64,000 bases of DNA from Patescibacteria group bacterium (GTDB taxonomy: Bacteria > Patescibacteriota > Patescibacteriia > UBA2591 > JAQUPP01). The stretch covers positions 75,717 through 139,716 of the forward strand of contig JAQUPP010000002.1 of NCBI GenBank assembly GCA_028716665.1, in the 5' to 3' direction. The notes below the pieces were generated by a model. That model worked only from the letters and a program-made list of their open reading frames with translations, searched no databases and was not told the DNA's origin. The position numbers and the translations under genes are program-made. Positions 2,616 to 28,521 of the stretch are shown here, one piece after another. Numbering within the stretch: the first letter of the stretch is position 1; each line of letters begins with the position of its first letter.

Positions 2616-2636
2616 AGGGCTTTGTTAAAATTTTCT

Positions 2637-3968: not shown

Positions 3969-3990
3969 TTTTTAAGTAGAGAGCTATCAG

Positions 3991-4075
3991 CCCCTCACAT
4001 GAAAATTATTGTCTTTTCCGAGTGAGTGCGGGCGACACAGGAGATTAATAATTTTGATAATTTTCATGTGAGGGG
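3991..4075. repeat. Perfect 19-bp inverted repeat (cccctcacatgaaaattat ... ataattttcatgtgagggg) with a 47-nt loop, right after the scpB stop codon
   Basis: Read directly from the sequence. Confidence 0.8.
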
Positions 4076-4089
4076 CCCTCATAGTTTAA
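4075..4089 (+). repeat. 15-bp direct duplicate of the tRNA-Arg 5' end (gccctcatagtttaa). The bona fide tRNA begins with the same 15-mer at 4198.
   Basis: Exact identity between 4075-4089 and 4198-4212. The intervening 108 bp carries two small hairpins (ctccgac/gtcggag and cccgac/gtcggg). Confidence 0.7.
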
Positions 4090-4197
4090 CTCCGACGCCT
4101 TAAAGGGTCGGAGTCCCGACCTCCAGAGCGTCGGGGCGGATAGAAAAATTTATTTTTTTTAGTAATTAGTCATTAGTAATTTGTAATTTGTTTTTCC

Positions 4198-4269
4198 GCC
4201 CTCATAGTTTAATGGATAGAACGTAGCCCTCCGAAGGCTGAAATGCAGGTTCGATTCCTGCTGAGGGCA
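4198..4269 (+). tRNA. tRNA-Arg (anticodon CCG)
   Basis: Manual cloverleaf. Acceptor gccctca/tgagggc, D-arm tagtttaatggatagaac, anticodon loop ctCCGaa, T-loop ttcgatt. Confidence 0.75.
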
Positions 4270-4328
4270 TTTGAAAAAACCAGCCAAAGTCCTCGGCATG
4301 CCGATGGCGGAATTATTTAAATAATATT

Positions 4329-13126: not shown

Positions 13127-16100
13127 ATGTCTACTCCTTCAACAATTAGAACATTGTCTTTGCCGGATGAAAAGTTAAGGAAGAATTCTGATTTTGATTC
13201 TATCAGACTGAAAATCGCTTCACCTGAAGAAATACTTAATTGGTCTTATGGAGAAGTGATAAAACCTGAGACTATCAATTATAGAACCGAGAGACCGGAA
13301 CGAGACGGTTTGTTTTGCGAAAGAATTTTCGGTCCGACCAAAGATTGGCAATGCTCTTGCGGAAAATATAAAAAAATTCGCTATCGCGGAATTGTTTGTG
13401 ATCGATGCGGAGTGGAAGTAACCAGGTCAATCGTCAGAAGAGAAAGAATGGGACACATAAAATTGACCGTGCCGGTGACTCATATTTGGTTTTTGCGCGG
13501 CGTACCTTCAAAAATAGGATTGATTTTGGATATGTCCATTCAGTCTTTGGAAAAAGTGGTTTATTTCGCCAATTTCATTATTACTGAAGTTAAAGAAGAT
13601 TTAAAAAAAGCCACTCTTGATGAAATAGAACAAGAATATAAAGACAAAAAGAAACAAATTAAAAATGAATTGACAGGTGAAGAATTTAATAAAGAGACAG
13701 ATCGGCTCAAAGCTTTATACGATGAAACAAAAAAAGAAATAAACAGTATTCATATTAAAAATTTATTAACCGAACCGCAATACAGAGATTTATCTTTAAA
13801 ATACGGACATTTTTTTGAAGTTGGCATTGGCGCTGATGCGGTCTCAAAACTTCTTCAAAATGTTGATTTGTTGAAATTGATCAAAGATTTGGAAAAAGAA
13901 ATAAAACACACCATTAATCTTTTGAAAAGACAAAAATTGATCAAAAGATTGAAATATATTAAAAATTTTCATAACAACAAACTCAAGCCGGAGAATATGG
14001 TTTTGACCGTTATTCCGGTTATTCCGCCTGATTTGCGCCCGCTCGTTCAACTTGACGGAGGCAGATTCGCTTCTTCCGACTTGAATGATTTATACAGAAG
14101 GGTTATTAATCGCAATAACAGATTGAAACGTTTGCACGAACTCAATGCGCCGGAAGTAATTTTACGAAATGAAAAAAGAATGCTTCAAGAAGCAGTTGAT
14201 TCTTTAATGGATAATGATATGCGAAGCGGAAAAACAGTGGTTGCTTCCACTGGTCAGCAAAGACCGTTAAAATCTTTAGCTGATATTTTGAAAGGCAAAC
14301 AAGGAAGGTTTCGTCAAAATCTTTTGGGAAAAAGAGTTGATTATTCCGGACGTTCAGTTATCGTTGTCGGTCCGAAATTGAAACTTTATCAATGCGGTTT
14401 GCCAAAAACAATGGCTATCGAACTTTTCAAACCGTTTATTGCCTGCGAACTTATTAAAAGGGGATTGGTTCACAATGTCCGCAGCGCCAATCGCTTGATA
14501 GAACAGGGGACGGAAGATGTTTGGGCTATTTTGGAAACAATTATTCAAACCGCTTATGTATTATTAAACCGCGCGCCAACCTTGCATCGTTTGGGCGTTC
14601 AAGCTTTTCAGCCGGTTCTGATAGAAGGAAAAGCAATTCAAATTCATCCTTTGGTTTGCGCCGCTTTTAATGCTGACTTTGACGGAGATCAAATGGCTGT
14701 TCATATTCCTATTACTGAAGAAGCGCGCCGAGAAGCCAAGGAAATTTTATTATCATCTAAAAATCTTTTAAAACCCGCAACCGGAGAACCGATTATTATT
14801 CCGGCCAAAGATATGGTTTGGGGAGCTTATTGGATGACGACATTGGAGAAAAAAGAAAAACAAGAAATGAAATTTTTCTCTTCTCAAAATGAAGCTGAGT
14901 TGGCTTATAAATTGGGCAAGGTCAGTTTGCGTCAGATTATTAAAGCAAGAGTGCTTGATCCTTCAAATAATAAAGATATAAAAATATTGGAAACCAGTGT
15001 TGGAAGATTGATTTTTAATTCCATTTTACCTGTTGGGCTTTATAAAATGGACAAAGTAGTGGATAAAAATAAATTAAAACAAATCATTGAAGATTGTTTG
15101 GAAATTTACGACGAAGAAACGACAGTCACGATGCTTGATAAAATAAAAGAAACTACTTTTTCTTATTTAACCACTTCCGGTCTTTCTTGGGGGATGGATG
15201 ATTTACCGACTCTTGAAGGAAAAGATAAAATTATCAAAGAAGCGGAGAAAAAAGTGGATGAAGTCCAGGATCAATTCAATATGGGTCTTTTAACCGAAGA
15301 AGAACGGTATCAGAAAAGCGTTGCCGTTTGGTTAAGCGCCAAAGATGTTATCGTTGATCTTTGTAAAAAATCTTTATCTTACACAAATACGGTTATTTCC
15401 ATGGTTAACTCCGGAGCAAGAGGTTCTTGGGCGCAGTTAGCTCAGATGTTCGGTACAAAAGGTATTGTTTCTTCGCCAACCGGAAGATTGATTGAATTGC
15501 CCATTAAATCTTCTTTTAAAGAAGGGTTTAATGTTTTGGAATTCTTCATCGCCACTCATGGTTCAAGAAAAGGTGTTTCTGATACGGCTTTGAGAACCGC
15601 CAGTGCCGGTTATCTTACTCGAAGAATGGTTGATGTTTGTCAAGATATATTAATTAATGAAGAAGATTGCGGAGACAAAGAAGGATTTAAAATAACCAGA
15701 GAAGATAATAAAATAATGGGTGAAACATGGGAGGCCAGATTATTAGGCCGAACTTCATTGGTAGAAATTAAAGATCCGAAAACAGGTAAGGTTGTCGTTA
15801 AAGCCAATGAAATTGTTACCAGAGATATTGCCAAAAAAATTAATGAAATTGATCCGGAAGAATTTATTATTCGTTCGGTTTTGACTTGCAAAAGCGACAA
15901 AGGAATATGCGCCAAGTGTTATGGTTATGATTTAGGTTTTAATAAACCGGTTAAACTTGGTGTTCCGGTCGGTATTGTGGCCGCTCAATCCATTGGTGAA
16001 CCTGGTACGCAGCTTACCTTAAGAACCTTCCATACGGGAGGTATTGCCGGTAAAGATATTACCCAAGGTTTGCCGAGAGTTGAAGAACTTTTTGAAGCCA

Positions 16101-16924
16101 GGCCGGTTAAAAGAAAAGCGGTTATGGCTCGACATAACGGCAATGCGGAATATATTGACGAAAATGATCAAAAAATTATTAAAATTAAATATCGCGGCGC
16201 GAAAGAAGATGTTTTTGTCATTCATGAAGATGAAGCATGGGATGTCAAAGTTAAAGAAGGCAAGACGGTTGATAAAAATGATGTTCTGGCGGTTTTTGAG
16301 AAACAAAAGATTGTTGCCAAACATAAGGGTGAAGTTAAATTTGACGGTAATTTTATTAAAGTGGTTTATGAGGACGATGACGCGGAAGAATACGACGTGG
16401 CCGGTTATACCGTCTGGATAAAAAATGGTGCTAAAGTGGAAGTCGGGCAGCAATTGACCGATGGATCTCTTGATTTATTGGAATTGTATGAATTAAGAGG
16501 AAAAGAAGCGGTCGCAAAGTATATTCTTAAAGAAATTCAATATATTTATTCTTCACAAGGACAGAAAGTTAATGACAAACATGTGGAAACGCTTGTTCGC
16601 CAAATGTTTTCAAGATGTTTGGTCAAAGAAAGCGGCGATACGAATCTTTTGTCCGGCGAAACAATATCCAAGGGTTATTTAATCAGATGCAATAAAGAGG
16701 TTAAAAAAGACGGAGGAGAATTGGCTGAAGCGGAAGAATTGTTATTGGGAATCACCCGTGTGTCTCTTTCAACCGACAGTTGGTTGTCCGCAGCTTCTTT
16801 CCAGGAAACACCGAGAGTTTTGATTAATGCGGCCGTAAGCGGCAGAAGAGATGAACTGAAAGGATTAAAAGAAAATGTTATTATCGGCAGATTGATTCCG
16901 GCAGGTACGGCTTGGAAAAAATAA
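13127..16924 (+). CDS. rpoC: DNA-directed RNA polymerase subunit beta'
   Basis: Zn-finger CxxC N-terminus, NADFDGD catalytic motif, conserved C-terminal region. Confidence 0.95.
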   Translation: MSTPSTIRTLSLPDEKLRKNSDFDSIRLKIASPEEILNWSYGEVIKPETINYRTERPERDGLFCERIFGPTKDWQCSCGKYKKIRYRGIVCDRCGVEVTRSIVRRERMGHIKLTVPVTHIWFLRGVPSKIGLILDMSIQSLEKVVYFANFIITEVKEDLKKATLDEIEQEYKDKKKQIKNELTGEEFNKETDRLKALYDETKKEINSIHIKNLLTEPQYRDLSLKYGHFFEVGIGADAVSKLLQNVDLLKLIKDLEKEIKHTINLLKRQKLIKRLKYIKNFHNNKLKPENMVLTVIPVIPPDLRPLVQLDGGRFASSDLNDLYRRVINRNNRLKRLHELNAPEVILRNEKRMLQEAVDSLMDNDMRSGKTVVASTGQQRPLKSLADILKGKQGRFRQNLLGKRVDYSGRSVIVVGPKLKLYQCGLPKTMAIELFKPFIACELIKRGLVHNVRSANRLIEQGTEDVWAILETIIQTAYVLLNRAPTLHRLGVQAFQPVLIEGKAIQIHPLVCAAFNADFDGDQMAVHIPITEEARREAKEILLSSKNLLKPATGEPIIIPAKDMVWGAYWMTTLEKKEKQEMKFFSSQNEAELAYKLGKVSLRQIIKARVLDPSNNKDIKILETSVGRLIFNSILPVGLYKMDKVVDKNKLKQIIEDCLEIYDEETTVTMLDKIKETTFSYLTTSGLSWGMDDLPTLEGKDKIIKEAEKKVDEVQDQFNMGLLTEEERYQKSVAVWLSAKDVIVDLCKKSLSYTNTVISMVNSGARGSWAQLAQMFGTKGIVSSPTGRLIELPIKSSFKEGFNVLEFFIATHGSRKGVSDTALRTASAGYLTRRMVDVCQDILINEEDCGDKEGFKITREDNKIMGETWEARLLGRTSLVEIKDPKTGKVVVKANEIVTRDIAKKINEIDPEEFIIRSVLTCKSDKGICAKCYGYDLGFNKPVKLGVPVGIVAAQSIGEPGTQLTLRTFHTGGIAGKDITQGLPRVEELFEARPVKRKAVMARHNGNAEYIDENDQKIIKIKYRGAKEDVFVIHEDEAWDVKVKEGKTVDKNDVLAVFEKQKIVAKHKGEVKFDGNFIKVVYEDDDAEEYDVAGYTVWIKNGAKVEVGQQLTDGSLDLLELYELRGKEAVAKYILKEIQYIYSSQGQKVNDKHVETLVRQMFSRCLVKESGDTNLLSGETISKGYLIRCNKEVKKDGGELAEAEELLLGITRVSLSTDSWLSAASFQETPRVLINAAVSGRRDELKGLKENVIIGRLIPAGTAWKK

Positions 16925-16948
16925 AGAGTTTTTATAATATTTAGTCAG

Positions 16949-17728
16949 ATGACAAAGAAATTAACAAATTTTTTGTTTATTCTAATTATAGGGTGTATTG
17001 TCCCCAAAATAGTTTTTGGGGACAATTTTAATTCAGTTGATATTGAAAAGGCGAAAAGCTTGGAGGCGAATCAAAAAGTGAAAGTTCAGGGTATTGTTAT
17101 AGTGGAACCGGACGTTTTATCCAGTCAATTTTTTTATCTTAACGGCATTCAAATTTATTCTTACAAAAAAGATTTCCCTCAATTATCTGTTGGCGACGAA
17201 GTTTCGGTACAGGGAATAATTTCAAAAATTAAGGGTGAAACAAGAATTAAAACAGCCACTAAAAATGATATTAAAGTTCTAAATAGGGGAATGGCGGCTG
17301 CGCCTCAGATAAAAGAAATAAAGGAAATTAATTTCCAATCAATCGGTTATTTGATAAAAATATCCGGTAAAGTGATTGAAAGAACAGGCACTAATGTTTT
17401 TATTAATGACAATACAGGCGAGATACTGGCTTATTTCAAACAATATGTTAAAATAGATTTGTCAAAAATTAAAGAAGGAGATGTAATTGAAATTACCGGA
17501 ATTTTAGCCCAGAATAATGATACTTGGCGTCTTTTGCCTCGCTTGGCCGAAGATATTAAAATTTTATCCGTTAATCAAAATATTCAATCAAAGCCGAATC
17601 TTTATTTATTGGGTTCAACTGCCAAGGTGATTGATTTCCAAAAATTAAAACCGTATTTTATCGCCAGTTCTGTCGTTTTACTTCTTGCCTTAATCATCTT
17701 TTTAATTATTAAAAATAAACAAAAATAA
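16949..17728 (+). CDS. hypothetical secreted/membrane-anchored protein (N-terminal signal/TM, C-terminal TM)
   Basis: Hydrophobic termini, no recognisable catalytic motif. Confidence 0.45.
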   Translation: MTKKLTNFLFILIIGCIVPKIVFGDNFNSVDIEKAKSLEANQKVKVQGIVIVEPDVLSSQFFYLNGIQIYSYKKDFPQLSVGDEVSVQGIISKIKGETRIKTATKNDIKVLNRGMAAAPQIKEIKEINFQSIGYLIKISGKVIERTGTNVFINDNTGEILAYFKQYVKIDLSKIKEGDVIEITGILAQNNDTWRLLPRLAEDIKILSVNQNIQSKPNLYLLGSTAKVIDFQKLKPYFIASSVVLLLALIIFLIIKNKQK

Positions 17729-17732
17729 TTTT

Positions 17733-18200
17733 ATGGAACGAACATTAGTTTTATTAAAACCGGATGCTCTTCAAAGAAATTTATTGGGCGAAATTGTTTC
17801 GCGTTTTGAAAGAAAGGGACTTAAAATTGTCGGAATCAAAATGATGAAATTGTCAGATGAAGTTTTGGCTGATCATTATTCTCATCATCGTGACAAGCCG
17901 TTTTTTGGCAAGTTGGTTAATTTTATGCAAAGCGCGCCGGTAGTAGCCATGGTCTTGGAAGGAATAGAAGCAATAGGAGCGGTACGGCTTTTATGCGGTC
18001 CAACTTCTGGACGCAAGGCTGATGCAGGCAGTATCAGGGGTGATTTTTCAATGAGCGTTCAACATAATATCGTTCATGCTTCAGATTCACTAGAGTCGGC
18101 AGAAAAGGAAATTTGGAGATTTTTTAATCAAAATGAAATTTTCGATTATCCCAAAATAGATCTTTCTGCCATTTACGGCGAAGAAGATTTGGAGAAATAA
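17733..18200 (+). CDS. ndk: nucleoside diphosphate kinase
   Basis: LVLLKPDA, GLKIVG and NIVHASDS motifs. Confidence 0.85.
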   Translation: MERTLVLLKPDALQRNLLGEIVSRFERKGLKIVGIKMMKLSDEVLADHYSHHRDKPFFGKLVNFMQSAPVVAMVLEGIEAIGAVRLLCGPTSGRKADAGSIRGDFSMSVQHNIVHASDSLESAEKEIWRFFNQNEIFDYPKIDLSAIYGEEDLEK

Positions 18201-18207
18201 AACGGGG

Positions 18208-18236
18208 TTGACATTTTCTAAAATTTTTGATATTAT
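18208..18236 (+). promoter_or_regulatory. Consensus promoter (GGGGTTGACA-17-TATTAT), near-identical to the one at 24692
   Basis: Read directly. Followed by a strong AAGGAGG RBS. Confidence 0.5.
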
Positions 18237-18272
18237 GTAGATAATATATAGTTCGTAAAAAAGGAGGAAAAT

Positions 18273-18698
18273 GTGAAAGATAAAATCTTTGAATTATTTT
18301 TTGGCAGTTATTGTTGGTGGAGATTTGCGCTACAAATGTTTTTTGGTTGGTTATTGCTTGTCGTCTCCACTATTTTAATTGTTTTAACTTCAGTCTCGGA
18401 AATAGTTTGTAATGTTTTGGGTGCGCTCATTTTAAGAGAGCCGCGCTTGGCTGAAAAAATAGAAATTAATTGGTTTGGGAAATCCACAATTATAAAATTT
18501 CTAGAATTTGAAGAAGAATTTTTCAGACAAATGTCAATATTCGGAATAGAGGAGAATGATCTTATTTGGTTTTGTTGGCGGATATTTATAACTATTCCTT
18601 ATAGCTTGCCGTTTATTTTGATAATGGAAATAGCCATAAAGATTGTTGATTTAATCAACCGAGGTCTTTATTGGTTGTGCCGAGGGGGTGAAGAATGA
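18273..18698 (+). CDS. hypothetical integral membrane protein
   Basis: Strong SD, GTG/ATG start, several hydrophobic helices. Confidence 0.45.
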   Translation: MKDKIFELFFGSYCWWRFALQMFFGWLLLVVSTILIVLTSVSEIVCNVLGALILREPRLAEKIEINWFGKSTIIKFLEFEEEFFRQMSIFGIEENDLIWFCWRIFITIPYSLPFILIMEIAIKIVDLINRGLYWLCRGGEE

Positions 18699-18844
18699 GG
18701 ATTATACGAGGCATATTTTTTATTATAAGAGCAGTAATTCTTGTAATAAGAGATTTGATTATGATAATAGGATTTGTATTAGGGGGAATCCTCTTTGTGA
18801 TATGGGTGGGGATATTCGGTTTATTCCGGTCTCATATGGAATAA
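18695..18844 (+). CDS. small hydrophobic protein (49 aa). Its ATG overlaps the stop of the upstream gene (ATGA).
   Basis: Translationally coupled ORF that the 6-frame track missed because it is short. Confidence 0.3.
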   Translation: MRIIRGIFFIIRAVILVIRDLIMIIGFVLGGILFVIWVGIFGLFRSHME

Positions 18845-18905
18845 AAAAATAAAAAAGCCTTTTAACTAAATGTTAAAAGGCTTTTAAATTTGAAGCGGTT
18901 AAAGA

Positions 18906-19151
18906 TTATTTAATGACTTTATTCAAATCTTTCAATAATTCTCCAAGATTTAATTCATATCTTTCGGCTATCATACCGATTCTTAATTTATCCATTTCAA
19001 AACTGGCCATTGGACAGCTTAAACAGGGTAAATTATATTTCATTAAAATTTTTTCCGCCTGGGGATGGCTCAAAATTTCTTTTAAAGTTGTTTCTTCAGT
19101 TATTTTATTTGTCATAATTTTATTTTTTAATGGACGGCGCAAGAAATGCAT
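18906..19151 (-). CDS. DUF1858-like redox disulfide protein associated with hydrogenase or hybrid-cluster protein
   Basis: LPCLSCPMA motif. Overlaps the hydA stop, consistent with translational coupling. Confidence 0.5.
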   Translation of the reverse strand: MHFLRRPLKNKIMTNKITEETTLKEILSHPQAEKILMKYNLPCLSCPMASFEMDKLRIGMIAERYELNLGELLKDLNKVIK

Positions 19152-20380
19152 AAATCATAAGCTCTGACCAGCATTTCTATTTTTTGCCGTTTTTGATTAG
19201 GGGATAATTTTTTTAAACTCGGAATGAATGTTTCCAGGTCTTTTTCCAAATTAAACAGAAATTGAGCAGTCGGAGTAATAATATTGGCCTTAACGATTTT
19301 GCCCTGATTGTCTATTTGATAAGCGTGAATCAGTAGTCCTCGCGGCGCCTCACAGGCTCCGACTCCATATCCGGCTTTAATTTTATAAGATACGCGATAG
19401 ATTTTATTTTTTGATTTCAAATGCTTTTGCAGAAGTTTTTGAGTTTCTTCAATGAGATGGATTATTTCTATCATTTGGGCAGTTACATTATGGAAGGTAT
19501 TATAACAAGGCAACTCAAGTCCTAATTTTTTCATTGCTTGGCGGGCATTTTTATTGAGTTTATTGCCGGCGATATTCAATCTGGCTAATGGCCCGACCAA
19601 ATAAGGCTGCTGATTGCGTTTCACCATGTTTATTATTTCATTCGCTCGTTGAAATTCAATTAATCCTGAGCTGTATTTCTGGGCCGGAATTGATAATTTT
19701 TCCGAAGAAGAAATATTGCCTTCATAGATTGCGTATTCTTTGTTATTTTTAAGTCCGACAAATTCAGTTTTTCTGGAAAATTTATTGATTTTTATTTTTC
19801 CAAACCAGTCAGATAAATCAATGGCGCTGGCTAAAATTTCCGGTTGTTTTTCCAAAAGTTTTTTTAATTTTTCCTGATTCGGAGCTTTTAAAAATCCTCC
19901 GATATTGGCTGACATCGGATGAACCGAACGGCCGCCGATTGTTTCAATCAATTCATTGCCGAATTCGCGAATTTTAATGATATTTTGAAAGGCCGCGGAA
20001 TGTTTTGACATCAAATCCAAGCTGTTTTCCAAGCCAAGATAATCAGAAGAGGCCATTAAAATATGAAGAGCGTGACTTTGAATAATTTGTCCATTAAGCA
20101 TTATTTTTCTTAAATTCACGATTGGCTCGGGAATTTTTATTTTTAAAGCCGCTTCAAGCGCTTTGGAGGCGGTGATACAATGAACAGCCGGGCAAAGTCC
20201 GCAAATTCTGGCCGTAATCAGCGACGCTTCTTCAATTGGCCGGCCAATAAGAATGCCTTCAATTAATCTCGCTCCTTCTTTAACCTCCATTCTGGCTTTA
20301 AGTATTTTACCGTTTAAAATATTCGCTTCCATGCCCGCGTGGCCCTCAATTTTATTTATGTGTTTAATGGTTAAGTTCAT
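19127..20380 (-). CDS. hydA: [NiFe]-hydrogenase large (alpha) subunit, group 3b sulfhydrogenase type
   Basis: N-terminal RICGLCPAVH and C-terminal DLCISCAVH nickel-binding motifs. The likely start is MNLTIKHINKIEGH (20380), not 20446. Confidence 0.8.
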   Translation of the reverse strand: MNLTIKHINKIEGHAGMEANILNGKILKARMEVKEGARLIEGILIGRPIEEASLITARICGLCPAVHCITASKALEAALKIKIPEPIVNLRKIMLNGQIIQSHALHILMASSDYLGLENSLDLMSKHSAAFQNIIKIREFGNELIETIGGRSVHPMSANIGGFLKAPNQEKLKKLLEKQPEILASAIDLSDWFGKIKINKFSRKTEFVGLKNNKEYAIYEGNISSSEKLSIPAQKYSSGLIEFQRANEIINMVKRNQQPYLVGPLARLNIAGNKLNKNARQAMKKLGLELPCYNTFHNVTAQMIEIIHLIEETQKLLQKHLKSKNKIYRVSYKIKAGYGVGACEAPRGLLIHAYQIDNQGKIVKANIITPTAQFLFNLEKDLETFIPSLKKLSPNQKRQKIEMLVRAYDLCISCAVH

Positions 20381-20424
20381 AAGCTTACTAAGTTGATAAG
20401 TATATAAGTTAATAAATTGATAAA

Positions 20425-20778
20425 TTATTTTTGAACTTTTATCCAAGAATTTAACATTTTGCTTACTTCTTCGGTTAAAATAATAATATCTTGATATTTT
20501 GTTTCATCGATATAAGTTAAATCTTTTGATAATAATATTTGATATCTCGTTTCTTCTAATGAACCATTGGCAATCATGTAAAAATGAATTCGATCTTTTA
20601 ATGTTGTTCTTCTAAAACCCTCGACAATATTGGAAGCAATAGATACTGCCGCTCTTCGCAGCTGGCTAGATAAACCATATTTTTCTTCTTCAGGGAATTG
20701 TTTGGTAATTTTATAAATTTTTAAAACCAATTCGTGAGCTTTCTGCCAAACCTTAATGTCTTGAAAACTTTTAATCAT
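20425..20778 (-). CDS. four-helix-bundle protein (TIGR02436, '23S rRNA intervening-sequence protein', Avd-like)
   Basis: KVWQKAHELVL...LSSQLRRAAVSIASNIVEG...RIHFYMIANGSLEETRYQILL is the classic family signature. Confidence 0.7.
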   Translation of the reverse strand: MIKSFQDIKVWQKAHELVLKIYKITKQFPEEEKYGLSSQLRRAAVSIASNIVEGFRRTTLKDRIHFYMIANGSLEETRYQILLSKDLTYIDETKYQDIIILTEEVSKMLNSWIKVQK

Positions 20779-20825
20779 ACTTATCTGCTTAGTTAGCTTA
20801 ATTACTTATTAACTTATCTGCTTAG

Positions 20826-21611
20826 TTAGCTTATCAGCTTCTTAAATTCGTCTTTAACGCCGAATTTTTCCAAAAGATTGTTTAAATCTTCATCGCTTAA
20901 TCCTTGTCTTTTAAAAATTTTTATTAAATTTTTTGCCGCCGGTTTGGATAAAAATCCGCGGCAAGCTGAACAAATCTCTCCGCTTTTTAAGCAAATTGCT
21001 TGGCATCCGCCCAAAGTAATCGGCCCGAGGCAGGGGAGTCCTTTTTGGAGCAGGCAATCATATTCTCTGATTTGGCATTCATAACAAACCGGTCGTTGAG
21101 GAATACATGGTATTTTACCGACTAATAATGAAGCGATTATTTTGGCAATTTCTTTTTTATTCGGCGGGCAACCGGGTATTTCCAAATCTATTTTTACATA
21201 CTCTTTTAAGGGTTTAATTAATGGGTTCTCAATATTTTTTGTTGATTTATAAATCTGTTTAATTAGTTTTTCTCTGTCGCGATAGTTTTTTATTTCCGGA
21301 ATTCCTCCAATGCAAGCGCAAGCGCCTATGGCGATTAAAAATTTGCTTTGTTTTCTAAATTGTTCTAATGTTTTGAGATTTTCTTTTGTTACCACCGAAC
21401 CCTCAACAAAAGCAATGTCAAATTTTGTCGGTGATTTACCGCTTTTTACCAAAGGAAATTCAGTTATTTGCAGTCGATCAACGACGCCCTTGAGAAGTTG
21501 TCCCAGGTTGATAATTTCCATTAAACAGCCGTTACAGGCGGTTAAAGAAATAATGGCAACAGTTGGTTTTTCCCGCCCTAGGCGGGTCGGCTTTGAGTTG
21601 ATATTTATCAT
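20826..21611 (-). CDS. hydD: [NiFe]-hydrogenase small (delta) subunit
   Basis: N-terminal LTACNGC motif and C-terminal Cys cluster. Sits between the hyp genes and hydA. Confidence 0.7.
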   Translation of the reverse strand: MININSKPTRLGREKPTVAIISLTACNGCLMEIINLGQLLKGVVDRLQITEFPLVKSGKSPTKFDIAFVEGSVVTKENLKTLEQFRKQSKFLIAIGACACIGGIPEIKNYRDREKLIKQIYKSTKNIENPLIKPLKEYVKIDLEIPGCPPNKKEIAKIIASLLVGKIPCIPQRPVCYECQIREYDCLLQKGLPCLGPITLGGCQAICLKSGEICSACRGFLSKPAAKNLIKIFKRQGLSDEDLNNLLEKFGVKDEFKKLIS

Positions 21612-21643
21612 AGTAATTATTTTTTTAGAAACACTCAGACAAT

Positions 21644-22285
21644 TTAATTTGTCTGAGTGTTTATGAATTCAAGGGCTCTTAAGGTGCTTTCAAGTAAACT
21701 TTTTTTCTTGGAAGAGTCAAGAATTTGTCGCGCTGTTCTCCAATGTATTGAGATCCAATCGTTGATTTTAAGATTTGGCAAGAGCTTCGGATACCAATTT
21801 ATTTCTATCCTTACTTTTTCGCCAAACGAAATTTTATCCTTAAATTCTAACGGCTGGACTTCTACCACAATTTTTTTTACCAATGACCCTTCTTTTTTGA
21901 TTTCTTTAACTTCACCAAAAGAAATCATGCAATCTTCTATACCGTACTTGATTAAAGTTGGTATCTCGGAAGGTTTTATTTTTGGCATATTGTTCAGGAC
22001 CGTGAAATTGTGATTCAAGGCACTGTTTTTTTGACTTGTCCATTTATATCCAAGCCAATAAGCCTCAATTACCTTGGTGGTGTACGGATTACTGATTTTC
22101 AAAAGCTTAGCAATTGTTCCGTAATAACAGGTGGGTTTCAATTTTGGGAGCGCCTCTCTTGCTTCATATCGGAATTTTTTTCCATTTGAGGCGATAAATT
22201 TTTTGAAAATTTCCGATGTTTTCAACTCTTTATCGCGTTGGCATCCCCAGGAATAAATTGCTGCTAAAATTTCGCCCTTTAACAT
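21644..22285 (-). CDS. hypothetical protein within the hydrogenase operon
   Basis: Overlaps the hypC stop. No recognisable motifs. Confidence 0.4.
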   Translation of the reverse strand: MLKGEILAAIYSWGCQRDKELKTSEIFKKFIASNGKKFRYEAREALPKLKPTCYYGTIAKLLKISNPYTTKVIEAYWLGYKWTSQKNSALNHNFTVLNNMPKIKPSEIPTLIKYGIEDCMISFGEVKEIKKEGSLVKKIVVEVQPLEFKDKISFGEKVRIEINWYPKLLPNLKINDWISIHWRTARQILDSSKKKSLLESTLRALEFINTQTN

Positions 22286-22500
22286 TTTTTACCTCCTTTG
22301 CCCTTTTGGGGCTTTAAAATTTTTAAAGACTCTTTCGCTTCTTTTTGAGATATTTTTTTAACCGCAAATCCATTTTGGGCTAAAATATAATCTCCCTTTT
22401 TAAGTTTCGGCACTAAAGAAATATTTATTTCTTTATTACTGTCCGTTAAAGCTTTATCTTTATTTATCTTAATGATTTTTTGAGGGTTTGCAAGGCACAT
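22279..22500 (-). CDS. hypC: hydrogenase maturation factor HypC
   Basis: MCLANPQKII...VSLVP...GDYILAQNGFA matches the HypC/HupF signature. Confidence 0.7.
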   Translation of the reverse strand: MCLANPQKIIKINKDKALTDSNKEINISLVPKLKKGDYILAQNGFAVKKISQKEAKESLKILKPQKGKGGKKC

Positions 22501-22639
22501 ACCAAATTTTTTAAAATTTTAAGTTATTCATAACGCGAAAATTTTACTAAAAATTTGAGTACCCGCCCAGATTTTTCATTGAAAAACTTGGGCGGGTAAC
22601 GATTTTGTTGCTCCGACTTAACGTCCGGAGACAAAATCG

Positions 22640-23449
22640 TTAAATCGCTCCAGGAATATTTTTTAATTCTTGATAAGAAAAAATTGGGCCGTGCTTGCAG
22701 GCATATTTTGAACCAATACTGCAATGTTGGCAAACGCCGATTCCGCAATGCATTCTTCGTTCCAAAGACAGAAAAATATTCGCGTCATCTAGTCCGGCTT
22801 GTTTTAATTTTTGAATGACAAATTTATACATTACCGGTGGGCCGCATAAAATGGCGGTTGCGCTGCTGTCAACTTTTATTTTATCAAAAAGGGTGGTAAT
22901 CAACCCGACATTTCCTTTCCAATTAGGACATTGTTTGTCCAAAGTGAGCGCCAAATTGGCGGATTTTTGCCAAGTTTTATATTCGTCTTTAAAAATCAAA
23001 TCTTTTGCCTCGCAAGCCCCGTAAAAAATTTGCATTTTGAAATTTTTATTATTCTGATTGGCCAAAATTAACGGTCTTAAAGGAACTAGTCCCAAGCCAC
23101 CGCCGATTAAAAGAATGTTGCCGGTCAGATTTTCGGGAAAGCCATTGCCAAAAGGTCCGCGAACAGTCAGCTGGTCGTTGATTTTTAATTGATGTATTTT
23201 TTTGGTTAATTGGCCTGCCTTGCGGACGCAAATTTGAAAATTTTTATTACTGTCATCCGGATTAGAGCAAACGGCAAAAGGCGCTTCAGAAAAAGAGGGG
23301 AGTCCGACTTCAATAAATTGGCCGGGAATAAATTTAAAATTTTTCTGATCTTCTTTATTTTTTAATTGCAAAGTAAAAAGTATGACTTCAGGCGTCTGTA
23401 TTTTGATATTTTTAATAACTGCAATTTTGGGAAGATAAGAATTTAACAT
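22640..23449 (-). CDS. hydG: sulfhydrogenase gamma subunit (PyrK-like FAD/NAD(P) oxidoreductase with a [2Fe-2S] cluster)
   Basis: Ferredoxin-reductase fold motifs and a C-terminal CGIGVCQHC. Confidence 0.7.
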   Translation of the reverse strand: MLNSYLPKIAVIKNIKIQTPEVILFTLQLKNKEDQKNFKFIPGQFIEVGLPSFSEAPFAVCSNPDDSNKNFQICVRKAGQLTKKIHQLKINDQLTVRGPFGNGFPENLTGNILLIGGGLGLVPLRPLILANQNNKNFKMQIFYGACEAKDLIFKDEYKTWQKSANLALTLDKQCPNWKGNVGLITTLFDKIKVDSSATAILCGPPVMYKFVIQKLKQAGLDDANIFLSLERRMHCGIGVCQHCSIGSKYACKHGPIFSYQELKNIPGAI

Positions 23450-23452
23450 AAA

Positions 23453-24481
23453 TTATTTTTTATTTTTTATGCTTTCTAATACTTCGTGAATCTTAATGCC
23501 GGCCGGGCAAACCATGGAGCATCGGCCGCAGCCAACACAGCCGGGGAAATTATATTCATCTGGGATGCGAACGAATTTATGATAATACCAATTGTAAATT
23601 CTCTCAGCCGTATTTTTTAAAAATTTATGACCGCCGGTTATTTCGGAAAATTCGGCGTAAAAACAAGAATCCCAGCATTTTTTTCTCATTCCCTCGTCTT
23701 TATTTAAGCAAGGTTGATCCGCCAAGCTGAAACAAAAACAAGTCGGGCAGACAATCGTGCATTTTCCGCATTCAATGCATCTTTGATCAAGATTTTGCCA
23801 AATATCGGTTTCAAGCGAGCCGGGCATTTTTTCTTTTATTTTTGTCATTTCCGGATTAGCCCCTTGTTCTTTAATCGGGCCGGCGTATTCAATGTGTTCA
23901 AAATCAGATTTCCAGCCGCTTTGTTTGGTAAAATCGTTTAAAATTTGCTGGCCCTTTTTAGAACCGGTAAAAATTTTAAATTCAGAAGATTTTTTTTCTT
24001 TTGCTTGACCTAAGAAAATATCAAATTGCAAATGTTCCAAAATATCTTCTTCGTATTTATCTTCCCAAACTTTGAAAGACAGAGATTGAAATTGGGGGAT
24101 TTGAGATTGCCCGATAATTAAAGTATTGTTTAATCTGGCTTGATAATACGGATCTTTTTCAAAAACTTGATTATAAAGCAAAATGGCTTTAAGATCAAAA
24201 ATGCTGACTCCGATTAAAGCTTGCTTAAAAGCGGTTAAATCAGCCTTAAAATCGTCTTTTTTGTATTTAAATAAAATCTCCCGTGAAGGCACGAGAAATT
24301 TTTTAAAAGAATATAACGGTAATTGGCCGGAAAAATCAAGCTGAGACGGCTCGTTAATCGGTTTAATCAAAATTTGTCCGTCTTCTTTTATTGGACCAAT
24401 AACAATATAGTTTTTTTCTTGAAGCCATTTAATGAATTTTTGCAACTGTTTTTTATCCATACCAGGTAGTGATCCGCCCAT
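23453..24481 (-). CDS. hydB: sulfhydrogenase beta subunit (two [4Fe-4S] clusters)
   Basis: CIECGKCTIVCPTC and CVGCGRCSMVCP motifs. Confidence 0.7.
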   Translation of the reverse strand: MGGSLPGMDKKQLQKFIKWLQEKNYIVIGPIKEDGQILIKPINEPSQLDFSGQLPLYSFKKFLVPSREILFKYKKDDFKADLTAFKQALIGVSIFDLKAILLYNQVFEKDPYYQARLNNTLIIGQSQIPQFQSLSFKVWEDKYEEDILEHLQFDIFLGQAKEKKSSEFKIFTGSKKGQQILNDFTKQSGWKSDFEHIEYAGPIKEQGANPEMTKIKEKMPGSLETDIWQNLDQRCIECGKCTIVCPTCFCFSLADQPCLNKDEGMRKKCWDSCFYAEFSEITGGHKFLKNTAERIYNWYYHKFVRIPDEYNFPGCVGCGRCSMVCPAGIKIHEVLESIKNKK

Positions 24482-24630
24482 AATTTTACAATAAAATTAT
24501 TAAGGAGGACAATATTTTTTTATTTTAGATAGATTTTATCTATATACCAAGTTGTAATTTTTGGCGGACTACTACCTGGCATAATTTAAACATACCAGAT
24601 TTATTAATTTTGTCAAAATTTTATTCTTGA

Positions 24631-24691
24631 CCCCGCACCTTTTGGCGATGGTATTTTTTAAATGCGAAGCATGTCGCCAAAAGGTGCGGGG
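24631..24691. promoter_or_regulatory. Perfect 18-bp inverted repeat (ccccgcaccttttggcga / tcgccaaaaggtgcgggg) abutting the -35 of the 24692 promoter
   Basis: Read directly. Sits between the divergent hydrogenase operon and the 24778 gene. Confidence 0.6.
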
Positions 24692-24726
24692 TTGACATTT
24701 TCAAAAAATTTTGCTATTATAATAAC
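24692..24726 (+). promoter_or_regulatory. Consensus promoter (GGGGTTGACA-17-TATTAT). Near-identical copy of 18208.
   Basis: Read directly. Confidence 0.5.
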
Positions 24727-24777
24727 AACCAAATAATTAAGTTTGGGGATAGTAGTACACCAAAAAGGAGGTGGAAA

Positions 24778-25227
24778 ATGAGAATAAGTTTAAGCAAAGA
24801 GGACTTTACAACTTTAGTCATATTGGCTCTTTTAGTCATATTAACTTTTCTATTGGTATGGCAATGGCAAATTACTTTGCTAATAACTAAAGGATTAGCC
24901 CTTCCATTAGCCATAATTTATGGATTGGCAACATGGGAATTAAAAGTTAAGCCCCTTTCTCCACGCAGTATTTTTGAAGAAAACTATAAGACAGAAATAA
25001 CTCAAAATGGGATGGTTGGATTCTGGACATGTTTATTGATATTCTTCTTAGCAGCGACTATTACGGATGTTTTAGGTACAATGGGTATAATGACTATGGG
25101 AGATTTATTAGAAACAAAGCATAAATGGCCATGGTTTATAGCGATTGATGTTATTCTTATAGTCTGTCTGTTTATTTCAAAAAGAAGACGGGATAGCCTA
25201 CCATTGAACTCAAAAGAAAAAACTTAA
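24778..25227 (+). CDS. hypothetical integral membrane protein
   Basis: AAGGAGG RBS, four predicted TM helices. Confidence 0.45.
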   Translation: MRISLSKEDFTTLVILALLVILTFLLVWQWQITLLITKGLALPLAIIYGLATWELKVKPLSPRSIFEENYKTEITQNGMVGFWTCLLIFFLAATITDVLGTMGIMTMGDLLETKHKWPWFIAIDVILIVCLFISKRRRDSLPLNSKEKT

Positions 25228-25286
25228 TTCTCAAAAAACAAAAGGTCTTCCGATAGTATTTCGGAAGACCTTTAAAATTAAAAAAT

Positions 25287-25724
25287 TTACTTTTTTCCGG
25301 TTGAGCCGAAACCGCCGCGGGATTTTTCGCTGATTTTTTCCGTTTCTTGCCAAACAACTTTTTTTACCGGGATAATCAAACCTTGAGCAATCCTTTCACC
25401 AACTTCTATTTTTACCAATTTGGCGGAAAAATTATAAGCGGCAAAATTTATTTCATCTGCTGGACCATTAAAATCCTGATCAACAATGCCGATATTATTA
25501 GCCATCATCAAGCCTTTTTTAAATGTTCCGCTTCGGCTGGCAATCAAAAGAAAATGGCCGGCCGGTACTTTGATAATCAGATTGGTCGGTAAAAGTTTAA
25601 TTTCTTGAGGTTTTATTTCTGCGGCAATTCTGGAATAAATGTCAAAAGCTGCGGCGCCTTTTGTCTTGTATTCAGGCAAGGGGAGTGATTTGTCAATTCG
25701 TTTGATTTTTATTTTATTGCTCAT
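25287..25724 (-). CDS. dut: dUTP diphosphatase
   Basis: dUTPase motifs GAAAFDIY, SRSG, GIVDQDFNG, GERIAQ, RGGFGSTG. Confidence 0.85.
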   Translation of the reverse strand: MSNKIKIKRIDKSLPLPEYKTKGAAAFDIYSRIAAEIKPQEIKLLPTNLIIKVPAGHFLLIASRSGTFKKGLMMANNIGIVDQDFNGPADEINFAAYNFSAKLVKIEVGERIAQGLIIPVKKVVWQETEKISEKSRGGFGSTGKK

Positions 25725-25730
25725 ATTTTT

Positions 25731-26339
25731 TTAATGACTCTCGCTCAAAACAATTTCCATTGCTTCCTGGGAAACGCCGAAAATCGGAGCCAAAGGTATT
25801 GCTAAATAAGAATTTTGCGATTTATCATCTGAGATTTTAATAAATTCAGGATTTTGTTTTAATTGGTCAATCAATTTCTTCTTTTCAATTTCCAATTTTT
25901 CGCGCGGCACCAGCAAATAGCCGGCGAATTTGTTGGCTTGGGTTTCCAAATATCCGTATTGCTCAGCCGGTATTTGTTCAACCAATTCGTAAAGCTTATA
26001 AATATTATTCAGTTTAAAAGCGCTGTAAATGTCTTTGTGCAGAATATAATGTCCTATTTCATGAGCAAATGAAAATCTTAATCTGTTTTGCTGCCGATCG
26101 TCTTTATACATGTCGGCGTCAACATAAAGAGTTTGCCAATTAAAAGAAATATGCGCGTCCATATCGCAGTCGCGCCTTAAATTCGGAATGGGAATAATTT
26201 GAATTTTTAATTTACCATCTATAATTTTTTCAATGTCCACCGGCAACAATTCTCCGCAATATCTGTCCCGAAATTCATCTGCCGCTTTTTTAATTTCTTC
26301 TTTACTTATAAATGGCACCCTTATATCGCAATAATCCAT
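25731..26339 (-). CDS. ImmA/IrrE-family zinc metallopeptidase (COG2856)
   Basis: HEIGHYILH HExxH motif in the ImmA/IrrE context. 6-nt gap to dut. Confidence 0.7.
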   Translation of the reverse strand: MDYCDIRVPFISKEEIKKAADEFRDRYCGELLPVDIEKIIDGKLKIQIIPIPNLRRDCDMDAHISFNWQTLYVDADMYKDDRQQNRLRFSFAHEIGHYILHKDIYSAFKLNNIYKLYELVEQIPAEQYGYLETQANKFAGYLLVPREKLEIEKKKLIDQLKQNPEFIKISDDKSQNSYLAIPLAPIFGVSQEAMEIVLSESH

Positions 26340-26347
26340 ATTATTTT

Positions 26348-26725
26348 TTAGGCATTTCTGATTAATTCTATCAAACGATCAATTTCCACTTTGGTCGGTT
26401 TCTCGTTTCTTAAAGTTCGGAAAAATACCGGCAAATATCCAACGGCATCACCTTGAGATAAAATATCTTCCGGGATAATGCCCTGATTTATTTGCGCTTC
26501 GTCCGTGAATTCTTGTAATTCTTTTTCATTTCCGGAAAGTCCCAATGCCTTGGCCCATTTAATCAATGTGTTAGCGTCCGCCGGGGGAGAGATTCGCCCT
26601 CTTTCTATCTTGCTCCAATTGCTCGGATCATAATTGACCAATTTGCATACTTCTCTCAAACTAAGATCATTTTTAATTCGTAATTCTTTCAAAGTTTCGC
26701 CGAATTTTTGCAAGTTTTTATTCAT
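26348..26725 (-). CDS. XRE-family helix-turn-helix transcriptional regulator
   Basis: LKELRIKNDLSLREVCKLVNYDPSNWSKIERG HTH. Immediately upstream of ImmA. Confidence 0.75.
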   Translation of the reverse strand: MNKNLQKFGETLKELRIKNDLSLREVCKLVNYDPSNWSKIERGRISPPADANTLIKWAKALGLSGNEKELQEFTDEAQINQGIIPEDILSQGDAVGYLPVFFRTLRNEKPTKVEIDRLIELIRNA

Positions 26726-26762
26726 AAATTTATTGATTACGTTTTTTATTTTTAAAATTGAC

Positions 26763-26784
26763 CTGTGGTATAACTATACCACAG
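26763..26784. promoter_or_regulatory. Perfect 22-bp palindrome (CTGTGGTATA-AC-TATACCACAG) in the XRE promoter, a candidate operator
   Basis: Read directly. Overlaps the -35 region of the minus-strand XRE gene. Confidence 0.6.
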
Positions 26785-26896
26785 AAAATAAAAAAATACA
26801 AATATCTTGTGGATAACTTTTTGATTCTTAAATAGCTATAAAATTTGAGTTTTCATCTGATGAAATAATTAGAAATTTTCATTTTATTTTAATTTT

Positions 26897-26936
26897 ACTA
26901 AACGTTTTTTCACGGCCGTGAAAAAACGTTTAGTAC
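26897..26936. terminator. Perfect 40-bp palindrome (tactaaacgtttttt-cacggccgtg-aaaaaacgtttagta). Bidirectional terminator-like. Shares its arms with the 56342 element.
   Basis: Read directly. Confidence 0.6.
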
Positions 26937-26948
26937 TTACTTGTTTTA

Positions 26949-28352
26949 TTACAAAGTGACGAAAATATAACCCTGATTTTTCAATTCTTTGATAATAATA
27001 TAAAGAGCCTTAATCGTCTCTTCGCGATTAGCTTTGTGATCTAAATTTAATCCGTCATGTAAAACAATAATTGAACCGGAGTGGACATTTTTTAAAATAT
27101 TTTTGGAAATACTTTCGGCTTTGGCATATTTAAGATAATCAGTCGTCATGTTATTCCACTCAATCATTCGTAATCCTTCTTGACGCGCGCTTTTTAACAT
27201 CGTCGGAGTGCGCCAGCCGTGCGGCGGCCTGAAAAGAGTAGGGTGTTCGCCGGTTGTTTGAAAAATAATTTCATTGGTTTGACGGATTTCTTGTTCAATG
27301 TTTTTTGCTTTTTCAAAAGGCAAACCAAAAGAATGATAATAACTGTGGTTTCCTATTTCGTGGCCTTGATCTGCAATATTTTTGGCGATATTCGGATATG
27401 TCGCCACATTGTCGCCGACTAAAAAGAAAGTCGCCTTAATATCTTCATCTTTTAAAATTTTTAAAATTTCCTCTGTATATTGGCCATTGGGGCCGTCATC
27501 AAATGTAAGCGCAACCATTTTTCGTTGATTTTTTTGGGCAGGTATTTTATTTTCCACCTTGCCGAAGAGTTGAGATCTCGGACTGCAAATTCCATAAATT
27601 ATAATAGTTAAAATAACGAAAATTTTTCCTGTGGTCAAAATTACTTTATTTTTAAAAACAAGAACGGGCTTCTTTAATATAAAAAATATACAATAATTAA
27701 TTGTATAGAGACAGATGGTTTTTAAAAATCCTGATTTTTGATAACGTCTTGCCGAGGTGGTTGCCCAAAGATTTTTAAAATAATAAACCTTGCCGACTGA
27801 AATCATTTTTTTCGTTAAATCGGCATCCTCGCCGTAAAATTTAATATCAGTGTTAAAGCCACCGATATCGGTCAGTTTATTTTTTTTAATTGCGAAATTG
27901 CCGCCGACAATCAAACGTATTAATTTTATTTTGAAACAAAAGAAGAAACCTTTGATAAAATTATTAATTGCTTTGCCGCCATCATAAAAAGTAAAAGGAT
28001 TATAAACAACTACTGCATCCCGATGAGATTTAATAAAAAAGGCTATCTTTTCCAAATAGTCTTCGGGTACGATAAAATCGGCGTCAGTATAAACCAACCA
28101 GTCGCCTTGAGCGTTTTCTAGGCCGCTTTGTCGCGCTTGTGGCAAGCCAATTCTTGGCTCGTAAATATATTTGACATTGTTTTTTTTAACAATTTCAGCC
28201 GTGTTGTCAGTGCTGGCATTATCAACAACAATAATTTCAGAGGGTTGTAATTTTTGTTTTTTAAAAGAATCTAAACAATTTTGGATATAACCGGCTTCGT
28301 TCCGGGCAGGAATGATTACGGAAAATTTTATAGAAGTTTCGTCTTTATCCAT
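26949..28352 (-). CDS. bifunctional family-2 glycosyltransferase / polysaccharide deacetylase (NodB homology) membrane protein
   Basis: N-terminal FSVIIPARNE...VDNASTDNT (GT2) and C-terminal VALTFDDGPN...HEIGNHSYYH (deacetylase), with TM segments between. Confidence 0.7.
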   Translation of the reverse strand: MDKDETSIKFSVIIPARNEAGYIQNCLDSFKKQKLQPSEIIVVDNASTDNTAEIVKKNNVKYIYEPRIGLPQARQSGLENAQGDWLVYTDADFIVPEDYLEKIAFFIKSHRDAVVVYNPFTFYDGGKAINNFIKGFFFCFKIKLIRLIVGGNFAIKKNKLTDIGGFNTDIKFYGEDADLTKKMISVGKVYYFKNLWATTSARRYQKSGFLKTICLYTINYCIFFILKKPVLVFKNKVILTTGKIFVILTIIIYGICSPRSQLFGKVENKIPAQKNQRKMVALTFDDGPNGQYTEEILKILKDEDIKATFFLVGDNVATYPNIAKNIADQGHEIGNHSYYHSFGLPFEKAKNIEQEIRQTNEIIFQTTGEHPTLFRPPHGWRTPTMLKSARQEGLRMIEWNNMTTDYLKYAKAESISKNILKNVHSGSIIVLHDGLNLDHKANREETIKALYIIIKELKNQGYIFVTL

Positions 28353-28399
28353 TTTTATTTATTATTATGAAATAAAAAATTGGGACAAATTTTTTATTA

Positions 28400-28470
28400 T
28401 CGGGATACCCGGAGTCGAACCGGGGCTGCACCCACCCCAAGGGCGCGTCCTACCGCTAGACTATACCCCG
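28400..28470 (-). tRNA. tRNA-Pro (anticodon GGG)
   Basis: Manual cloverleaf on the minus strand. Acceptor cggggta/tatcccg, anticodon loop ttGGGgt, T-loop ttcgact. Confidence 0.75.
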
Positions 28471-28521
28471 AATTAAAAACTCAAAAATAAATTTTTTAAT
28501 TTTTTATTTTTGAGTTTCAAA

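Follow-up and report, generated by a model that had tools for sequence, protein, structure and literature searches.

A conserved XRE repressor and M78 peptidase pair with a promoter-embedded, predicted operator palindrome upstream of dut in a Patescibacteria genome

In a 64,000-nucleotide (nt) stretch of contig JAQUPP010000002.1 from a Patescibacteria group bacterium (assembly GCA_028716665.1; hereafter the window, with positions counted from its first nucleotide), three head-to-tail open reading frames (ORFs) on the minus strand encode an XRE-family repressor (26348-26725; 125 amino acids (aa); Pfam HTH_31, 2.5e-12), an M78 (ImmA/IrrE/CapP-like) zinc metallopeptidase (25731-26339; 202 aa; Pfam Peptidase_M78, 8.9e-13) and dut, the gene for a trimeric dUTP diphosphatase (dUTPase; 25287-25724; 145 aa; Pfam dUTPase, 1.3e-22). 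An original prediction, made from the sequence alone, had described a tightly coupled operon of an XRE gene, an ImmA/IrrE-type protease gene with a HEIGH motif and dut, and the ORF coordinates confirm it, with spacings of 8 and 6 nt; the motif (H93-E94-x-x-H97) reads at 26049-26063 on the minus strand. A terminator-like hairpin followed by a T tract (25241-25273, minus strand; 13 pairs, 6 of them G-C, then TGTTTTTT) closes the operon 3' of dut.

The promoter region of the XRE gene carries a perfect 10+2+10 palindrome, CTGTGGTATA-AC-TATACCACAG (26763-26784), which contains both the core shared by the family, TGTGGTA-N6-TACCACA (26764-26783), and an extended -10 element, TGg-TATAGT (26773-26781, minus strand). 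The palindrome is therefore perfect and at the XRE promoter, as had been proposed, but it does not overlap the -35 element as was also proposed; what it covers is the extended -10, together with the probable start site. A weak -35 hexamer, TTGTAT, can be read 17 nt upstream of TATAGT (26796-26801, minus strand) and is missing from a consensus promoter scan, with 3 of its 6 bases matching. In the Patescibacteria relatives a canonical TTGACA sits 11-14 nt upstream of the core, and the palindrome centre reads TGnTATAAT. Taken with the comparisons below, we read this locus, with a probability of roughly 0.6, as a self-contained, autoregulated and protease-gated promoter cassette from which read-through would drive dut in this lineage.

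A survey of one genome per species (185,579 species genomes), using a pattern-limited search for relatives of the peptidase, yielded 78 species loci that encode one (loci are numbered with the prefix L), and nearly all have a gene of the same XRE family immediately 5'. At metagenomic loci with enough room downstream, the XRE gene is followed by an M78 gene in 43 of 53. In total, about 140 loci, from Patescibacteria as well as several other phyla, carry the XRE-protease cassette. Sequence identity to the XRE protein of the window is 52-73% within Patescibacteria and 33-54% in Desulfobacterota, Ignavibacteriota, Bacteroidota, Verrucomicrobiota, Planctomycetota and others. All-against-all clustering of the neighbouring genes recovered only the pair, with no conserved third gene beside it. 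The genes 3' of the pair in relatives include housekeeping genes (for RarA/MgsA, RecO, MurB, YbeY, MscS and dut), genes resembling toxin or defence genes (DarT-DarG, Fic/SoFic, TIR, GNAT, GIY-YIG, E2/multiubiquitin and type I restriction-modification) and others of no assigned function. The cassette is a stand-alone, conserved unit found sporadically and in variable contexts, and because the family is sporadic and its contexts vary, it is accessory and was probably transferred horizontally as a two-gene unit.

In several relatives a toxin or defence-like gene lies directly 3' of the cassette in the same orientation: DarT-DarG after an 18-nt gap (L052:4664-6174), a TIR protein gene with a 4-nt overlap (L292:1353-2210), Fic/SoFic (L018:3545-4672 and L032:4695-5792) and multiubiquitin-E2 (L058:4720-6967). 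Since the same cassette precedes DarT-DarG, Fic, TIR and E2/multiubiquitin genes elsewhere, the suggestion in the original prediction of a regulatory or antitoxin module controlling neighbouring genes is still viable and plausible.

The perfection of the palindrome alone is unremarkable, because nine distinct palindromes in the window are perfect over arms of 10 nt or more, where about 1.5 are expected, the majority of them resembling terminator hairpins by inspection. Judged from the aligned loci, the significance of this palindrome comes from its conservation in relatives. Allowing at most 2 mismatches, 52 of 73 genome loci have the core 5' of their XRE gene. Further, residue 37 of the recognition helix is Trp where the half-site is GTGGTA (60 loci) and Ile or Leu where it is GTTGTA (7 loci), with no exceptions in either group, a covariation that appears to tie the XRE protein to the palindrome DNA. 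The conservation of the core, its position and the recognition-helix covariation together make a strong comparative case that the palindrome is the operator of the XRE repressor, in line with the dimeric operator originally predicted.

That the palindrome is a mere intrinsic terminator or RNA hairpin might be argued from a scan that classes it, on the minus strand, among terminator-like hairpins (10 pairs, then TCAATTTTAA) and from the terminator-like character of most other perfect palindromes in the window. We consider this extremely improbable and rejected it, because the sequence itself, and not pairing alone, is conserved across phyla with no free compensatory variation of the arms, and because the palindrome keeps a fixed distance from the -35 element and covaries with a recognition-helix residue. 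In addition, the upstream neighbour of the XRE promoter, a GT2/polysaccharide-deacetylase fusion gene (26949-28352), already has a stronger hairpin, a perfect 20+20 structure (26896-26935; arms 100% complementary) that ends this gene and insulates the XRE promoter.

A search for further copies of the operator found none in the 64-kb window, where the palindrome is unique even when up to 3 mismatches are allowed. About 600 kb of flanking sequence around the relatives yielded a single extra copy of the core, at position 3350 of L058, approximately 290 nt upstream of the XRE gene of that locus and near its second, divergent XRE/M78 pair. L058 (Bacteroidota) has two divergent XRE/M78 pairs side by side (2251-3256 and 3634-4618) with operator-like sites between them. 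Outside Patescibacteria, the spacer is often N7 and the operator is doubled 5' of the XRE gene, in overlap or in tandem (TGTGGTA-N7-TACCA/TGTGGTA-N7-TACCACA), as seen in L043, L046, L051, L052, L055, L056, L059, L065 and L066, versus a single N6 operator in Patescibacteria; the tandem arrangement suggests that two dimers may bind cooperatively.

When metagenomes were scanned for TTGAC-N11-14-core, 121 sites were found, and a member of the XRE family follows in 64 of these. The remaining 57 promoter-plus-operator sites have no gene of this family 3' and lie mostly in higher-G+C contigs before unrelated genes, and for these reasons were rejected as members of a regulon. Among them, the same promoter-embedded palindrome precedes Rrf2-family regulators, a 537-aa HisZ-like gene and a Phd/YefM-type antitoxin in higher-G+C organisms (L203, L206/L251, L300, L302 and L215/L262, together with L207 and about 20 identical human-gut metagenome contigs, which form the HisZ-like gene set). 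Because the same palindrome precedes unrelated genes in these organisms, the operator motif is not exclusive to the XRE family. A scan of viral sequences with the bare 14-base operator pattern gave 120 stretches, which we take as chance because none is near an XRE or M78 relative.

These searches bear on whether the pair could act as a global DNA-damage regulator, a substitute for LexA with a dispersed regulon of which dut would be a direct member. The model for such a role is the DdrO/IrrE (PprI) pair of the Deinococcus radiation-desiccation response, in which DdrO controls a dispersed regulon through the radiation/desiccation response motif (RDRM) and irrE and ddrO are separate loci. DdrO, a similar XRE repressor, is about 125-130 aa long and has a helix-turn-helix (HTH) at its N terminus and a helical domain at its C terminus (PMC6868357; PMC10904395), and it represses its own gene, as is predicted for the XRE repressor here. 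The peptidases share a similar peptidase and helical-linker fold (8sln, 3dte; template modelling (TM) score approximately 0.5-0.57), although IrrE has a GAF domain and the window peptidase does not. Besides this likeness in fold and in hidden Markov model (HMM) searches to IrrE/PprI and CapP, a global role would accord with the DNA-metabolism genes downstream of the pair in relatives (RarA/MgsA, RecO, GIY-YIG, DarT and dut) and with a DnaA-box-like element, described below, that flanks the promoter. In contrast to the Deinococcus system, however, the two window genes adjoin each other, their operator bears no relation to the RDRM, and neither the window nor, L058 apart, the flanks of relatives hold a second site. 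Most of the metagenomic sites that no gene of this XRE family follows are in contigs with a much higher G+C content, before unrelated regulators, and the family is sporadic (78 loci in 185,579 species genomes by the pattern-limited search) rather than a lineage-wide core. A global regulator is thus quite improbable.

The dUTPase is of an ordinary type. It matches the NCBIfam equivalog PRK00601 (NF001862) at 116.6 bits against a cut-off of 103 bits and aligns over its full length to trimeric dUTPases in the PDB (to 6e-23), with the motifs RSG, GxVDxDF, ERIAQ and a C-terminal GGFGSTG (motif V). Its motif III reads GIVDQDFNGP: the Tyr that usually discriminates the sugar is replaced by Phe, and a short insertion comes next. 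dut follows the pair in L001-L005 only, whose peptidases share at least 93% identity with that of the window; it is absent from beside the pair in the other approximately 70 genome loci and was found near the XRE gene in 0 of 65 metagenomic loci. Meanwhile, dut genes 65-70% identical to this one adjoin alaS, HU, patatin or RNase Y genes, and one that is 88% identical follows a TPR-like ORF. Synteny in relatives thus upholds the XRE-M78 pair but not the place of dut beside it, an outcome close to the one that the original prediction had named as counting against itself, namely dut in one place and the pair in another. By these comparisons dut is a recent, accidental and lineage-specific passenger of housekeeping type, and not the intrinsic or signalling component, akin to a phage derepressor, that had been envisaged. 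Nevertheless, dut is probably co-transcribed with the peptidase gene, and since it lies 6 nt downstream and before the only terminator, the dUTPase is probably repressed and induced together with the switch.

The original prediction also noted that the block lies 3' of tRNA-Pro(GGG), beyond the GT2-deacetylase gene, and both features map as described (the tRNA at 28399-28471, minus strand; it was the sole match in an RNA-family search). The block could accordingly be the remnant of an element integrated at the tRNA, or Dut could derepress the XRE protein as phage Dut does for Stl of Staphylococcus aureus pathogenicity islands (SaPI). ImmR/ImmA pairs are typical of mobile elements (PMC6868357), and the XRE profile matches the Stl HTH weakly (E 4.5e-4, in the HTH region only). 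Even so, we regard both ideas as very improbable. No direct repeat of the 3' end of tRNA-Pro was found within 15000-28480, the G+C content of the block (0.36-0.37) is similar to that of its flanks, and no integrase Pfam family occurs among the called genes within 8 kb on each side, which are of housekeeping types (rpmB, rpsL-rpsG-fusA-tuf and a NiFe hydrogenase cluster). The integrase, attachment (att) site and foreign composition of an ImmR/ImmA mobile-element context are therefore all lacking at the locus, and the family is almost absent from viral contigs, with only 1 peptidase relative in the 2.9 million of IMG/VR. A genomic partnership of the Stl-Dut kind between the XRE repressor and the dUTPase was likewise not found beyond L001-L005, and because the linkage of dut to the pair is confined to these near-identical relatives, co-evolution of the two would not have been possible.

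Elsewhere in the window, a 117-aa gene with 23S-rRNA intervening-sequence protein (IVP) and bAvd Pfam matches (20425-20778, minus strand) is inserted within the NiFe hydrogenase cluster and adjoins a tandem 33-nt direct repeat (20779-20811 and 20812-20844). Beyond the dut terminator, a perfect hairpin with 19-nt arms (24630-24648 / 24674-24692) runs into a near-consensus promoter, TTGACA-17-TATTAT with a TG (within 24630-24720), which precedes the gene for a 149-aa membrane protein (24778-25227). The 34-nt promoter block of this gene recurs, at 91% identity, at 18203-18236.

In the XRE protein, an HTH domain (residues 3-79), whose recognition helix is N36-W37-S38-K39, is joined by a linker (80-94) to two C-terminal helices (95-107 and 112-124) that carry the conserved motif LPxFFRTLRNxKPT. 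Its relatives number 629 at E<=1e-10, its best HMM match is PADLOC capH (4.2e-7), and an AlphaFold2 (AF2) model, built like that of the peptidase with database homologues, has an overall predicted local distance difference test (pLDDT) score of 81. In the family alignments (A2 and A3), L98, P99, F102, R103 and T104 are invariant or almost so across phyla. The LPxFFRTxR..KPT motif holds hydrophobic-Arg bonds, as do the mapped cleavage sites of CapH, cut at F82/R83 (10.1101/2022.04.27.489752), and DdrO, cut at L106/R107 (PMC6868357). By analogy with these sites, the segment L98-K112 (codons LPVFFRTLRNEKPTK, 26390-26434, minus strand) is the predicted target region of the protease, with F102/R103 or L105/R106 as candidate scissile bonds.

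The M78 protein combines its peptidase domain with a small helical one and lacks a GAF domain; its AF2 model (pLDDT 91.6) ends after the helical linker. H93, E94, H97 and E132 are invariant across 27 diverse homologues (alignment A1), and E132 is probably the third zinc ligand. The protein matches the PADLOC capP model at 6.2e-17, over profile positions 3-122 of 242 only, and its sequence profile matches CapP (7t5t) at 1.5e-8; the best Foldseek matches of the model are CapP, PprI and IrrE, with TM scores of approximately 0.5. The family forms 489 clusters at 50% identity with E<=1e-30, and the best 150 of those matches are mostly about 200 aa long. In four loci of metagenome-assembled genomes (L042, L045, L057 and L036) the peptidase frame is split or shortened, with tblastn matches in two frames or a short ORF, reflecting either pseudogenes or assembly errors. 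The adjacency of the two genes across loci, the HMM and fold matches and the invariant zinc-site residues all point to a repressor/protease pair of the ImmR/ImmA class, as the original prediction held.

Of the characterized pairs, CapH/CapP is the closest by HMM (capH, capP), by PDB sequence (7t5t) and by fold. It likewise consists of adjacent genes for an XRE-HTH repressor and an M78 HExxH peptidase, and in its repressor, too, an N-terminal HTH is followed by a short helical C terminus that contains a hydrophobic-Arg bond (Lau et al. 2022, 10.1101/2022.04.27.489752; PMC13228613). The window peptidase differs in its length of 202 aa, in the absence of a GAF domain and in having no cysteine between HExxH and E132, the region of the cysteine-switch loop of CapP. 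Moreover, CapH and CapP regulate cyclic-oligonucleotide-based antiphage signalling systems (CBASS) and other defence operons, whereas the downstream gene in the window is the housekeeping gene dut; the cassette stands directly upstream of defence genes in a minority of relatives (L052, L018, L032, L292 and L058) and not in the window. Both CapP and IrrE bind single-stranded DNA (ssDNA) in a groove that their peptidase and GAF domains form between them (PMC13228613), a sensing mode that is not transferable to the 202-aa peptidase because the GAF domain is absent.

ImmR/ImmA of ICEBs1, an integrative and conjugative element (ICE), and of prophage immunity offers a short, GAF-less M78 anti-repressor protease beside an autoregulated XRE repressor, as here. 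The cut that ImmA makes in ImmR falls at F95/M96, where the final two predicted helices meet (PMC6868357). Unlike that pair, the window cassette lies outside any ICE or prophage and has no divergent int/xis or lytic promoter arrangement, and its repressor resembles that of ICEBs1 in sequence only over the HTH (7t8i, E 0.0057). The adjacent, co-oriented genes and the intact HExxH with a downstream Glu place the cassette in the XRE/COG2856 class (ImmR/ImmA, DdrO/IrrE and CapH/CapP), within which it is best described as an uncharacterised subfamily. A literature search found no paper on the TGTGGTA-N6-TACCACA operator or on this XRE/M78 subfamily.

The same class has also been viewed in terms of toxin-antitoxin (TA) modules. 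Were the cassette a type II TA-like module, the M78 protein would act as a toxin or modulate growth, with the XRE protein as its autoregulating antitoxin; there would be no dedicated sensing of a signal, and dut would be unrelated to either. The HTH-first gene order, the tight coupling and autoregulation, and the sporadic occurrence across phyla in varying neighbourhoods all fit such a module. The predicted COG2856/XRE TA-like modules (Makarova et al. 2009, PMC2701414) share this order, distribution and variability and sometimes have a third, toxin-like gene, and a pair in Brucella has been regarded as a TA system (PMC10538038). The nearest NCBIfam model to the XRE protein is a 'repressor/antitoxin' family, at a score far under the cut-off. 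Nevertheless, the pairs listed as studied in a 2019 paper on DdrO (ImmA, IrrE and Rir; PMC6868357), and later CapP, all act on the partner repressor, and the conserved C-terminal motif of the repressor resembles known cleavage regions; the conserved operator and the cleavage-like motif favour a switch over an addiction module. Ten metagenomic XRE homologues have no adjacent M78 gene, which is unusual for an antitoxin, and an orphan toxin was not seen. We therefore judge a TA-like module unlikely.

In the protease-gated cassette that we favour, a dimer of the 125-aa XRE protein would bind TGTGGTA-N6-TACCACA over the extended -10 and start region and thereby keep the operon off by occluding the promoter. 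The co-transcribed M78 peptidase would be activated by a signal, which by analogy with ImmA, IrrE and CapP would most likely be DNA damage or replication stress. The peptidase would then most likely cut, or otherwise disable, the FFR-TLR segment at the C terminus of the repressor, which is probably needed for dimerisation. Inactivation of the repressor would derepress the promoter, so that the XRE gene, the peptidase gene and, by read-through, dut would be transcribed to the terminator at 25241-25273. As the cassette is portable, any gene placed 3' of it in the same orientation would come under its control.

Several observations weigh against this reading. The ten XRE homologues that lack an M78 neighbour keep the same operator. 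The Trp/G versus Ile-Leu/T covariation may go back to no more than one or two events in evolution. Model confidence is low over the C-terminal domain of the repressor (pLDDT approximately 61-72), and neither sequence profiles nor Foldseek matched it to the C-terminal domains of DdrO or CapH; the HTH alone matches. The absence of a GAF domain means that the signal may differ from that of CapP and IrrE, and, by analogy with Rir/Crh (PMC6868357), there may be no cleavage at all. Finally, weak promoter-like matches inside the peptidase gene (e.g., 25862-25834) could allow independent, constitutive transcription of dut.

The orphan XRE loci include L214, L277, L280, L290, L314 and L320. By inspection, their downstream ORFs look Bro-N/DinD-like in L277 and L280 and HsdM-like in L320.

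A DnaA-box-like element, TTATCCACA, lies 6 nt upstream of the -35 hexamer (26808-26816, minus strand) and occurs once in the window; this nonamer is identical to the consensus DnaA box. The exact sequence is present in 18 of 44 Patescibacteria upstream regions (the L001-L042 set), nearly always 32-37 nt before the operator and in one orientation throughout, as compared with 15 copies elsewhere in 324 kb, an enrichment at the promoter of about 44-fold. It was found at -34 to -36 in 5 of 62 metagenomic loci. The flanks of the element are not conserved, and it is one inserted base apart from the operator half-site (TATCCACA vs TACCACA). It could be either a putative DnaA site or an auxiliary XRE site. 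A bolder and decidedly unlikely extension of the favoured reading is that the GAF-less switch, with its near-invariant operator code, is wired to DnaA in Patescibacteria and senses replication status or stress, in which case dut would be inducible by replication stress here and the same switch would gate DarTG, Fic and TIR genes elsewhere.

For this locus, the finding is mostly deflating: the link to the dUTPase is accidental and recent, and no remnant of a mobile element was found. The interest, moderate to low for the locus, is higher for the family, whose operator code, minimal protease and DnaA-box-like element are all testable. The pair is useful as a tractable example of an XRE/M78 system, with a 125-aa repressor, an operator defined to the base and a natural Trp/G versus Ile-Leu/T swap of specificity. 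Its minimal 202-aa protease could help answer how GAF-less members of the class sense their signal, and the conserved DnaA-box-like element provides a testable lead to a replication-linked input. More broadly, the cassette could show whether such pairs act as portable inducible promoters for the genes downstream of them.

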